The notes under the pieces were generated by a model. The model did not search any database and was not told the origin of the DNA. It worked only from the letters and a program-made list of their open reading frames with translations. This document shows positions 23,191 to 24,533 of a DNA stretch of 64,000 nt, piece after piece. Position numbers and translations under genes: made by a program. This DNA comes from Escherichia phage SHEFM2K, in the sequence record PQ390715.1. The stretch is one strand, 5' to 3'. The first letter of the stretch is position 1; each line of letters begins with the position of its first letter.

Positions 23191-23721
23191 TTATTCAAGT
23201 ATAGTAATTTCAATTAAACGAATTTCGATAAACTCGTTTTCAGTTTCCCATGACGTGCCAAATTTCTTTTCAAGTTCAGATTTCACATCACTTTTAAATT
23301 TTCCCATAGTATTAGGAATAATTTGTTTGGTTAATTTATCGTAACCACAATAAAACATAGGTTTCTCCCTTCGAGATATTAGCTGAACAAAATCTTTTGG
23401 ATATGCAGGTATGTTATGCATCACTTCATGAATACACTCAGTACTTGAATCTTGTACTTTGTACATTACATTAAGTTTACCTCTGAAATTTGCGGTCATA
23501 TCAACAATAGTTCCTTTACCCGATTTAAGTAAAGTTCCATTCTTTGAATGAGAGCAATAAAATACCTCATCACCAATATTAGGATAATACAAATTAAATT
23601 CTAATTCAGATTTTACAGCCAGCCGTTTGAAACTTTCTGTACGTTTTATATAAGTTTGGTATTTGTTTATGTTCAAAAGAATATCTCTCTTAGTAAATGT
23701 GATATAACTGGCATAGTCCAT
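23191..23721 (-). CDS. hypothetical protein (176 aa)
   Basis: ORF track; overlaps 3' end of methyltransferase gene. Confidence 0.45.
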   Translation of the reverse strand: MDYASYITFTKRDILLNINKYQTYIKRTESFKRLAVKSELEFNLYYPNIGDEVFYCSHSKNGTLLKSGKGTIVDMTANFRGKLNVMYKVQDSSTECIHEVMHNIPAYPKDFVQLISRREKPMFYCGYDKLTKQIIPNTMGKFKSDVKSELEKKFGTSWETENEFIEIRLIEITILE

Positions 23722-24533
23722 CCATTCCCAAGCATTTTGTATGCTTGTGTCTTACTAGACACTTTAAAGAAATCTTCAGGAACACCCTGTAATTTACAAC
23801 ATTCTACTACACTTAAGTGTCTATAGTCAATATTTCTTTTGCCATTCTCTAATAGATATTGACGACTGATCACTGGGTCACGAAACACCAATTGTCGTCT
23901 GGATTTATTAAAGTACTGGTTACAATCACCACCTTTAAAATAGTTAGCATCTATACAGTACGAAGCGGTTCTGTCAGTGTACCAACCATCTTCAATAATA
24001 TCTTGAAGTTTAGGTGCATTGGATAATGCAGGTGGTATAAAAAGCTTATCAGTACTGTACCAGTAATATCTCTGCCTGAAGTGAGGCGTATAATGCTGGG
24101 AGTTTATCAGTACTGGCGTGATTCCTAAAATACTATTAATGTATTCTTTGAAATCTTCCTTCATTTTAACATTTTCAAACAGAAATTTCAAGTTAGGATT
24201 GAGACTTTTGATATGATCAAAAATTTCAACCATTACTAAAAATAACTGCCCACGTATATCATTTAAACCACCCTGTTTACCTGCAACTGACCAGGCTTGG
24301 CATGGGAAACCACCCATTAATAAATCTATTTTGTCCCACTCAATATCCCATTCTCTCCACTTAGTTACATCACCCAATTGGATAATATCAGGAAAGTTAG
24401 ATTGAGATTCAGCTATTGCGTACTTATCAATTTCGGATGAATAATATTTTTCAACTGGGATACCAGCATCTTGCAATGCCATATATCCCACACTCATTCC
24501 ATTAAAAAGAGAAAGTACTCGGATAGGTTTCAT
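23673..24533 (-). CDS. DNA (cytosine-5)-methyltransferase, compact (286 aa)
   Basis: motif I LSLFNGMSVG, motif IV GGFPCQAWSVAG (catalytic Cys), motif VI FENV. Confidence 0.8.
   Translation of the reverse strand: MKPIRVLSLFNGMSVGYMALQDAGIPVEKYYSSEIDKYAIAESQSNFPDIIQLGDVTKWREWDIEWDKIDLLMGGFPCQAWSVAGKQGGLNDIRGQLFLVMVEIFDHIKSLNPNLKFLFENVKMKEDFKEYINSILGITPVLINSQHYTPHFRQRYYWYSTDKLFIPPALSNAPKLQDIIEDGWYTDRTASYCIDANYFKGGDCNQYFNKSRRQLVFRDPVISRQYLLENGKRNIDYRHLSVVECCKLQGVPEDFFKVSSKTQAYKMLGNGWTMPVISHLLREIFF

Follow-up and report, generated by a model that had tools for sequence, protein, structure and literature searches.

A compact, DNMT3-like cytosine-5 DNA methyltransferase gene in Escherichia phage SHEFM2K and its phage-borne orphan subfamily

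DNA methyltransferases acting on the C5 position of cytosine have been annotated in several jumbo coliphages, and the papers describing phAPEC6, Sharanji and UE-S1 refer to a C5 cytosine or "HaeIII" methylase, for which protective methylation is assumed and no experiment is reported. The gene considered here lies in a stretch of 64,000 nucleotides from Escherichia phage SHEFM2K (sequence record PQ390715.1, hereafter the window), within a span, 23191-24533, that the list of open reading frames (ORFs) resolves into two minus-strand ORFs rather than one, the first of them encoding the methyltransferase. The nearest relatives of the window are Asteriusvirus jumbo coliphages (IA-38, phAPEC6, SP27, 121Q, PBECO4, slurp01, G17, Sharanji and others), with which the region shares 99.1-99.9% identity. 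The products annotated as "DNA methyltransferase" in PBECO4, phAPEC6, slurp01, UB and JP4 have the same protein sequence (100% identity), and 121Q gp91, a "DNA-cytosine-methyltransferase", is 99.7% identical. The identical protein is found in 12 listed records of independently named isolates, two of which are duplicate PBECO4 entries, and annotations of the gene already exist in about 30 near-identical phage genomes of GenBank. The genes of phAPEC6 (gp123c), 121Q (gp91), PBECO4, RaK2, CBB and GAP32 share the same neighbourhood, and the window gene is this gene; as a gene call, it is already known and ordinary. Orthologues with 64-78% identity occur in RaK2, K64-1, Muenster, CBB, GAP32, EJP2, the Erwinia phages Hallingskeid and Kaldavass and the Xanthomonas phage XbC2, and since the gene is thus present across the RaK2/121Q/CBB/GAP32 clade at 64-100% identity, it can be regarded as a conserved feature of these jumbo phages. 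What the present analysis adds is the cause of the compactness of the enzyme, the phage-borne orphan subfamily to which it belongs, a revised description of the neighbouring gene and of the transcription unit, the exclusion of an action on nucleotides, on tRNA or by carboxymethyl transfer, and observations at the genome level that bear on the possible purpose of the enzyme.

When considered as a whole, the evidence indicates that the ORF probably encodes an active, stand-alone DNA cytosine-5 methyltransferase that depends on S-adenosylmethionine (SAM) and represents a compact, DNMT3-like type found almost only in phages. The coding sequence and its principal catalytic motifs are located as follows:

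23673..24533, minus strand: coding sequence of the DNA (cytosine-5) methyltransferase, 286 amino acids (aa), ATG start, identified by PF00145, TIGR00675 and its motifs
24486..24515, minus strand: motif I (SAM binding), LSLFNGMSVG, residues 7-16, placed by the alignments, with F10 and G12 present
24288..24314, minus strand: motif IV, GGFPCQAWS, with the catalytic Cys78 (codon 24300-24302); G75, P77, C78 and S82 are invariant
24168..24176, minus strand: motif VI, ENV, with E120, N121 and V122 all invariant
23721..23729, minus strand: motif X, GNG, with G269, N270 and G271 invariant

The scores against the methyltransferase families are far above chance: in the profile searches, Pfam PF00145 is matched at E 7.5e-38 (131.2 bits against a cutoff of 22) and TIGR00675 at 119.2 bits against a cutoff of 100.65, and the protein also falls into PHROG 116, "DNA methyltransferase". 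In an alignment of 34 family sequences, on which all statements of invariance are based, the catalytic landmarks are invariant or nearly so. Besides those listed above, E34 and D55 of the SAM-binding region of motifs I-III are retained, motif VIII (FRQRYYW) keeps the invariant R153 and R155 of the R-x-R signature, and motif IX, RHLSVVECCKLQG (residues 238-250), carries the landmarks R238 and E244. Motifs I to X follow each other in a non-permuted order that is colinear with the DNMT3 and HhaI alignments, with the variable recognition domain between motifs VIII and IX, and the AlphaFold2 (AF2) model of the protein reaches a mean predicted local distance difference test (pLDDT) of 92.6 and a predicted TM score (pTM) of 0.90. 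An earlier sequence-only reading of this DNA had recognised a C5-cytosine methyltransferase by motifs I, IV (with the catalytic PCQ) and VI, and the family scores and invariant landmarks bear this out; as for the damaging substitutions in catalytic motifs that it had named as evidence to the contrary, none is seen in the 34-sequence alignment, in which every catalytic residue is kept.

Comparison with relatives adds information on the constraints under which the gene evolves. The orthologue in UE-S1 has 626 aa and contains an in-frame intein of 340 aa, which includes a LAGLIDADG homing-endonuclease domain and sits precisely at the catalytic cysteine, with the junctions GGFP/CFPAGT...NNIVVHN/CQAWS and the catalytic Cys serving as the +1 splice residue. 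The junction between Pro77 and Cys78 corresponds to window positions 24300-24303, and the window allele is intein-free. Five records (UE-S1, TH47, JNE01, ph0011 and A4) match only from residue 78 on, and the insertion in TH47, of about 1 kb, has the same size as the UE-S1 intein. The UE-S1 paper is silent on the intein, and inteins in actinophage methylases have been described previously. An element that is kept in frame at such a position suggests that the working host protein is still needed. When only the exteins are compared between the window and UE-S1, the ratio of nonsynonymous to synonymous substitution rates (dN/dS) amounts to 0.14 for the whole protein, with values of 0.136 for the catalytic core and 0.169 for the recognition domain; both parts are under purifying selection.

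Some records of relatives depart from this pattern or carry doubtful labels. In the Salmonella phages SD-6_S16 and SD-1_S14 the methyltransferase matches start at residues 93 and 112, respectively, and the copy of CMSTMSU is in three pieces (OR699182.1, OR699183.1 and MH494197.1), for which true decay and assembly errors are both possible explanations. MG065645.1 and MG065639.1 ("Campylobacter phage A145/A150") are labelled as phages of Campylobacter jejuni and belong taxonomically to Justusliebigvirus, as the A145 record itself says; their methyltransferase match, at 51.5% identity, has the same score as that of several coliphages such as ECGD1 and phiWec187, and the host label may be wrong. 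The damaged copies in SD-6_S16, SD-1_S14 and CMSTMSU could be taken to mean that the window gene, too, is a decaying or inactive remnant. This is highly improbable, given that the window copy has every catalytic residue, shows a dN/dS of 0.14 and is identical in 12 records, and that the damage in the relatives may itself stem from assembly errors.

The compactness of the enzyme is best understood from its target-recognition domain:

23826..24056, minus strand: target-recognition domain, residues about 160-236, delimited by family conservation and AF2 secondary structure

With 286 residues, the protein had been described from its letters as shorter than typical. Against classical enzymes this holds (M.HhaI has 327 aa and M.HaeIII 324-331 aa), but within its own family the length is normal, since many members have 268-300 aa. 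The accompanying proposal of a small target-recognition domain proves correct, as this domain comprises only about 77 residues between motifs VIII and IX, and the length of 286 aa is due to this minimal domain, which is as small as in animal DNMT3. The family is very large, with at least 8000 proteins at E <= 1e-10, and in the family alignment its larger members carry 40-60 extra residues directly after RRQLVF that the compact members do not have. The core of the domain, CIDANYFKGG...KSRRQLVF, is strongly conserved and includes two signatures of the subfamily, CIDANYFKGG (193-202) and KSRRQ (210-214), with C193, A196, Y198, K200, K210, R212 and R213 invariant. Comparison of the recognition domain alone with solved structures gave no meaningful sequence match, and hence no specificity can be transferred to it.

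Among solved structures, the catalytic domains of DNMT3C, DNMT3A and DNMT3B are the closest to the phage protein by sequence (E 3e-23 to 1e-22), some of the alignments covering its residues 2-282, and M.HaeIII and M.HhaI stand behind them in the single-sequence search at about 8e-18. Ranking with family profiles places DNMT3B first (1e-35), followed by DNMT3A (1e-34), M.HhaI (2.5e-31) and M.HaeIII (3.7e-27), although the lead of DNMT3 over M.HhaI is only about 14 bits in what is a comparison of scores and not a tree. At the level of structure, the AF2 model matches DNMT3A with a Foldseek TM of 0.80, and the full-length model superposes on DNMT3B, the matched entry being a DNA-bound structure. 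Several details are shared as well. Motif I reads LSLFDGIATG in DNMT3 and LSLFNGMSVG in the phage enzyme, that is, the same LSLF(D/N)G variant instead of the classical DLFxGxGG; a loop containing VS before motif X is common to both; and the catalytic constructs of DNMT3A, DNMT3B and DNMT3C, with 284-291 aa, have the size of the phage enzyme and the same minimal recognition domain. Identity between the two nevertheless amounts to only 26-30%.

The reverse search points in the same direction: with a DNMT3A catalytic-domain query of which the first 193 residues came from an alignment and the last 88 are approximate, Asteriusvirus proteins were among the top matches in the phage collection (29.7% full-length identity, E about 5e-21), and only the Pseudomonas phages Epa40 and Epa41 stood above them. 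In these 43-kb genomes (MT118304.1 / NC_069747.1), a gene labelled "hypothetical protein" gives the strongest phage match to the catalytic domain of human DNMT3A, with 33.5% identity over 98% of the partly approximate query and E 9e-30, in a match that spans only about 261 codons. As judged from such scores, the resemblance of the phage enzyme to DNMT3 is real, but it does not prove a specific sister relationship, nor is the idea new. Viromics papers routinely call such phage genes "DNMT3A" via KEGG, and M.CviAIV of a chlorella virus, a stand-alone enzyme without an N-terminal domain, clusters with Dnmt3 (Jurkowski and Jeltsch 2011, PMC3227630), so that viral enzymes of this stand-alone, DNMT3-like kind have a precedent in the literature; M.CviAIV belongs to a eukaryotic virus, and its likeness to the phage enzyme is drawn from its description.

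The nature of the substrate has to be weighed against this background, since the sequence-only reading had also allowed for an action on nucleotides rather than on DNA. This suggestion finds no support, because the protein shows the complete architecture of a DNA enzyme, with motifs IX and X, a constrained recognition domain and superposition on DNMT3B. Phages, moreover, carry out nucleotide-level C5 modification of dCMP, by methylation or hydroxymethylation, with enzymes of the thymidylate-synthase family, which have another fold. As to a Dnmt2-like methylation of tRNA, both DNMT3 and bacterial DNA methyltransferases outscore Dnmt2 by sequence, and a recognition domain that is conserved under purifying selection is what would be expected of a reader of DNA sequence; activity on free nucleotides or on RNA can therefore be given hardly any weight. 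Dnmt2 tRNA methyltransferase as an identity for the protein is likewise unlikely, in that the CFT motif that defines Dnmt2 (PMC3227630) is absent from the 286-aa sequence.

It is also conceivable that a group other than methyl is transferred, either carboxymethyl from carboxy-SAM (Cx-SAM) in the manner of CmoX, or methyl as an intermediate step, with 5-methylcytosine (m5C) serving TET-type hypermodification. In CmoX, from Synechococcus phage S-B43, Arg replaces the Asn of motif X, the catalytic motif is SPPC and CmoA is encoded nearby. The window enzyme, however, has an invariant N270 and FPCQ in motif IV; no CmoA, ligase, TET/JBP enzyme or glycosyltransferase is annotated within 50 kb around the phAPEC6 gene; and a survey of jumbo phages came upon no TET/JBP enzyme, all of which leaves this alternative with a very slim chance. 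Two further assignments were tried and rejected. A relationship to the E. coli Dcm/EcoRII type (NF007772) is contradicted by a score of 21.4 bits against a cutoff of 710. In split C5 methyltransferases such as M.AquI and M.EcoHK31I, an overlapping ORF supplies the C-terminal motifs; here, motifs IX and X lie within the 286-aa chain, and the downstream ORF is without similarity to methyltransferases.

The methyltransferase is an orphan, and its subfamily is almost entirely phage-borne. Family scans of the neighbouring genes, PADLOC included, matched no nuclease or defence family, and these neighbours are small proteins of no known function, several of them from a paralog family with the motif EExFFQxS. 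The DNA pattern encoding CIDANYxKG has at least 120 matches in IMG/VR viral contigs, against only 32 loci in a set made up of one genome for each of 185,579 bacterial and archaeal species. At these 32 cellular loci, the ten largest neighbouring ORFs, read by eye and not scanned against families, included no recognisable restriction enzyme; among them were a terminase large subunit, a DnaB-like helicase, a replisome-organiser-like protein and second C5 methyltransferases. The abundance in viral contigs, the rarity of cellular loci and the phage-type neighbours lead us to regard the subfamily as essentially one of phage and prophage orphan methyltransferases.

Around the methyltransferase, the following elements can be distinguished:

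24571..24600, minus strand: sigma-70-like promoter candidate, TTGGAA, an 18-nt spacer and TATAAT, with TG before the -10 (10/12 consensus matches)
24540..24545, minus strand: Shine-Dalgarno-like AAAGGA, 6 nt 5' of the methyltransferase ATG, read from the sequence
23191..23676, minus strand: downstream ORF in its probable form, 161 aa from TTG 23676, as judged from the start of a homologue and from codon changes
23161..23186, minus strand: intrinsic-terminator-like hairpin with a 10-bp stem, AAAUCCACGC/GCGUGGAUUU, and a 3-nt loop, followed by a U run (-15.5 kcal/mol, z -2.9)
12848, 22887, 25322, 25777, 26196, 26584 and 28605, minus strand: ORFs with EExFFQxS(T/L)(I/V), found by motif search

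The promoter, the methyltransferase, the coupled ORF and the terminator look like one unit. The hairpin stands directly 3' of the downstream ORF, and in UE-S1 a terminator is annotated at the equivalent place. It had also been stated that the next gene overlaps the 3' end of the methyltransferase, and this is true of the longest ORF, 23191..23721 (minus strand), which starts at ATG 23721, has 176 aa and overlaps by 49 nt; this ATG is, however, probably not the true start. The alternative TTG 23676 overlaps the methyltransferase stop as TTGA, and the homologue P0124 (161 aa, 71% identical) has its Met exactly at the aligned position. In the 15 extra codons, comparison of the window with UE-S1 reveals the non-conservative changes F>L, K>T and D>Y, against only E>D in the methyltransferase frame, and the annotators themselves disagree, with 121Q gp92 overlapping the methyltransferase 3' end and the UE-S1 and phAPEC6 products set at 133 and 55 aa, although both genomes keep the whole ORF of 176 codons. 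These three observations favour the later TTG start, which fits better, so that the 49-nt overlap is probably an artefact of ORF calling.

In pairs of the dcm-vsr type, the gene overlapping the methyltransferase encodes a mismatch endonuclease of the Vsr family. As for the product of the downstream ORF, it falls into PHROG 28599, and searches returned no Pfam, NCBIfam or PADLOC family, Vsr included, and no PHROG functional match. Its homologues form four clusters, all from this phage group; only its last 55 or so residues are kept in Klebsiella relatives, where they resemble a separate 69-aa ORF that follows the methyltransferase. The AF2 model, with a pLDDT of 53, is unusable for a fold search. 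The description of the methyltransferase as embedded in a paralog array is right in outline, given that seven ORFs of the window carry the motif EExFFQxS(T/L)(I/V) and flank the gene on both sides. They have about 125-180 aa, with the motif near the C-terminal third, and the one member that was scanned, at 22633-23175, has matches to PHROG families alone, all of them without a known function.

Since the methyltransferase is an orphan and is kept throughout the clade, evasion of restriction is the most reasonable role for it. The sequence-only reading had come to the same proposal, of which the orphan status is upheld by neighbours devoid of restriction families and by the clade-wide occurrence; the protective role is something that we infer, as did the authors of the genome papers. 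In such a scheme, Cys78 of FPCQ would attack a flipped-out cytosine at C6, and SAM would donate its methyl group to C5. The short recognition domain, with its loops CIDANYFKGG and KSRRQ, would read a short motif, probably of 2-4 bp. Methylation of the replicated phage DNA would precede its packaging, and m5C-sensitive restriction enzymes of the next host would then fail at the methylated sites. Expression would be driven by the gene's own sigma-70-like promoter, which would serve the methyltransferase and the translationally coupled small ORF up to the intrinsic terminator.

It is nevertheless important to set out what speaks against this picture. The promoter is a consensus match only, in a region that has no excess of promoter-like sites over shuffled sequence, and our search of the literature found no methylation or restriction data for 121Q, PBECO4, phAPEC6, Sharanji or UE-S1. 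In E. coli, m5C in RmC and CpG contexts is the target of McrBC, McrA and Mrr, so that protection by methylation would not be free of cost. Finally, site avoidance and not methylation looks like the main anti-restriction strategy of this phage, and with most of its G+C-rich palindromes purged, few sites may be left for the methyltransferase to protect.

The last point rests on the base composition of the 64-kb window and of 350 kb of the near-identical phage ECO103 4-12-1. GCGC does not occur in either (about 160-296 expected in the latter), and it is also missing from 100 kb of a RaK2-like Klebsiella phage. Of the 64 hexamer palindromes, 23 are absent from the coliphage, comprising all 8 made purely of G and C and 15 of the 24 with four G/C; among these 24, only GTGCAC, CACGTG, ACGCGT, TCGCGA and CCTAGG exceed four copies. 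CCSGG has 10 sites against 251 for CCWGG. AGTACT, by contrast with its expectation of 187, occurs 918 times in the 350 kb (4.9-fold), GTAC being enriched as well, and the window holds 130 copies (e.g. at 233, 341, 877 and 1063). These sites lie within coding sequence in all phases, with a slight flanking consensus (a weak C before and G after), and their conservation between ECO103 and TH47 is 70% against a hexamer median of 40%, which ranks second of 405. AGTACT thus looks like a selected DNA signal, and its enrichment, like that of GTAC, is confined to the RaK2-like clade and not found in other carriers of the subfamily.

These data could be read in favour of a purpose other than protecting phage DNA, such as a mark for regulation, packaging or self-recognition, or methylation of host DNA at a site that the phage lacks, for instance GCGC. 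Both the 350-kb Asteriusvirus sample and the 100-kb Klebsiella sample lack GCGC while their clades keep the methyltransferase; most restriction-type palindromes are already avoided, leaving little for a protective enzyme to do; and the conserved, enriched AGTACT means that sequence-specific DNA signals operate in this genome. Against this, the absence of GCGC does not track the enzyme family: in a Justusliebigvirus whose enzyme is 51% identical, 115 GCGC sites are counted against 105 expected, which makes the absence a trait of the clade and not of the enzymes. Enrichment of AGTACT and GTAC is not common to other subfamily carriers either, the family scans found no methyl-dependent nuclease or reader adjoining the methyltransferase, and a non-protective role is purely conjectural, so that we consider it rather improbable and prefer protection from restriction.

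The same figures were used in an attempt to deduce the recognition site, and the following candidates were discarded. GCGC is rejected as a property of the family on account of its normal count in Justusliebigvirus, and GTAC/AGTACT because enrichment occurs only in the RaK2-like clade. CCWGG is not avoided, and although the inner C of CCAG is unusually conserved, very-short-patch repair of the host would explain this, which renders it uninformative. Nor does avoidance itself designate a site, as the surviving G+C-rich palindromes have no convincing sub-motif in common and the palindromes avoided by the E. coli phages are not the same as those avoided by the Klebsiella phages.

A refinement of the preferred explanation, in which the enzyme methylates the substrate DNA of the phage at a defined motif, would be that it acts on CpG or a CpG-centred site, as DNMT3 does, and that deamination of m5C has eroded CpG in the genomes that carry it. 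The idea draws on DNMT3 being the best match to the phage enzyme by sequence and fold. In the HMMER alignment, the invariant K200 stands opposite a Lys in the recognition-domain loop of DNMT3C, a position which we take to be that of R836 in DNMT3A and K777 in DNMT3B. The Asteriusvirus genome has a CpG rho of 0.74 and a TpG/CpA rho of 1.23. At synonymous NNY third positions, C has a frequency of 0.147 before G against 0.25-0.28 before A, C and T, evenly across flanking bases; T4 and RB69 show no such deficit, and depletion at codon boundaries is also present in the Klebsiella jumbo phage and a Justusliebigvirus. Synonymous C/T differences between ECO103 and TH47 are, in addition, commoner before G (odds ratio 2.4, compared with 1.4 for T4/RB69).

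Two samples from IMG/VR extend the observation beyond these phages. In the first, 15 independent contig clusters with both recognition-domain motifs were compared with 24 that carry related enzymes lacking the motifs, and gave a median CpG rho of 0.72 against 0.93 (p 0.005) and a codon-boundary ratio of 0.59 against 0.875 (p 0.0015), with no difference in GpC and G+C content. In the second, independent sample, 32 motif-bearing clusters showed a CpG rho of 0.675 against 0.94 (p 0.0012) in 31 G+C-matched contigs with GGPPCQ-type methyltransferases, GpC being marginally lower (p 0.016 overall, 0.07 after G+C matching).

The deficit in IMG/VR is, however, concentrated in CGCG, CCGG and TCGA, with ACGT and ACG/CGT at the level of the controls, and a deficit confined in this way points to palindrome avoidance rather than to deamination. 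Recent substitutions at CpG, polarised by means of an outgroup, are raised 2.0-fold for C>T (11/843 vs 56/8647, p 0.047), but also 2.6-fold for C>A and 5-fold for C>G, and with transversions elevated too, the excess is not specific to transitions. Sites that CpG methylation could protect (CTCGAG, GTCGAC, CGATCG, CGGCCG and GCGC) are still purged, which argues against a fully protective CpG or GpC methylase. DNA with m5CpG is restricted by McrA, McrBC and Mrr of E. coli, and the motif classes of the IMG/VR comparison were set after inspection of the data, with hosts not controlled. CpG is accordingly best treated as a testable lead and not as a conclusion, and we hold it to be unlikely. Somewhat less likely still is the broader proposal that these enzymes form a phage-restricted, minimal DNMT3-like lineage, sister to the eukaryotic de novo enzymes, that would methylate CpG or a motif of 2-3 bp genome-wide and leave a footprint of CpG depletion.

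Clearly, the recognition sequence is what would make this gene informative. The literature found reports no specificity for the compact subfamily: the paper on KP15/KP27, which carry a relative with 30% identity, makes no statement on it, and a search on phage CpG methyltransferases retrieved nothing relevant. The subfamily is very large, has the size of a DNMT3 catalytic domain and resembles DNMT3 above any other solved structure, so a specificity assigned to one member would extend to thousands of metagenomic homologues now labelled "DNMT3A". If this specificity were CpG, the subfamily would provide a compact prokaryotic CpG methylase and, with it, a specific candidate for the origin of DNMT3. 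What the methyltransferase does for the phage should also be seen within an unusually thorough evasion at the level of sequence, with GCGC and 23 palindromes gone and AGTACT enriched.

Other known systems differ from the enzyme in several respects. The classical type II enzymes M.HhaI and M.HaeIII, with 324-331 aa, have a recognition domain about 30-40 residues longer and belong to restriction-modification pairs, whereas the phage methyltransferase is without a partner. CmoX is, like it, a phage C5-methyltransferase homologue, one that modifies a short GC site genome-wide, and yet its distinguishing features (Arg at motif X, SPPC and a neighbouring CmoA) have no counterpart in the Asteriusvirus enzyme or its locus. 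DNMT3, finally, possesses PWWP and ADD regulatory domains and a partner of the DNMT3L type, neither of which accompanies the phage enzyme, in which the catalytic domain begins at residue 2 and accounts for the 286-aa protein.

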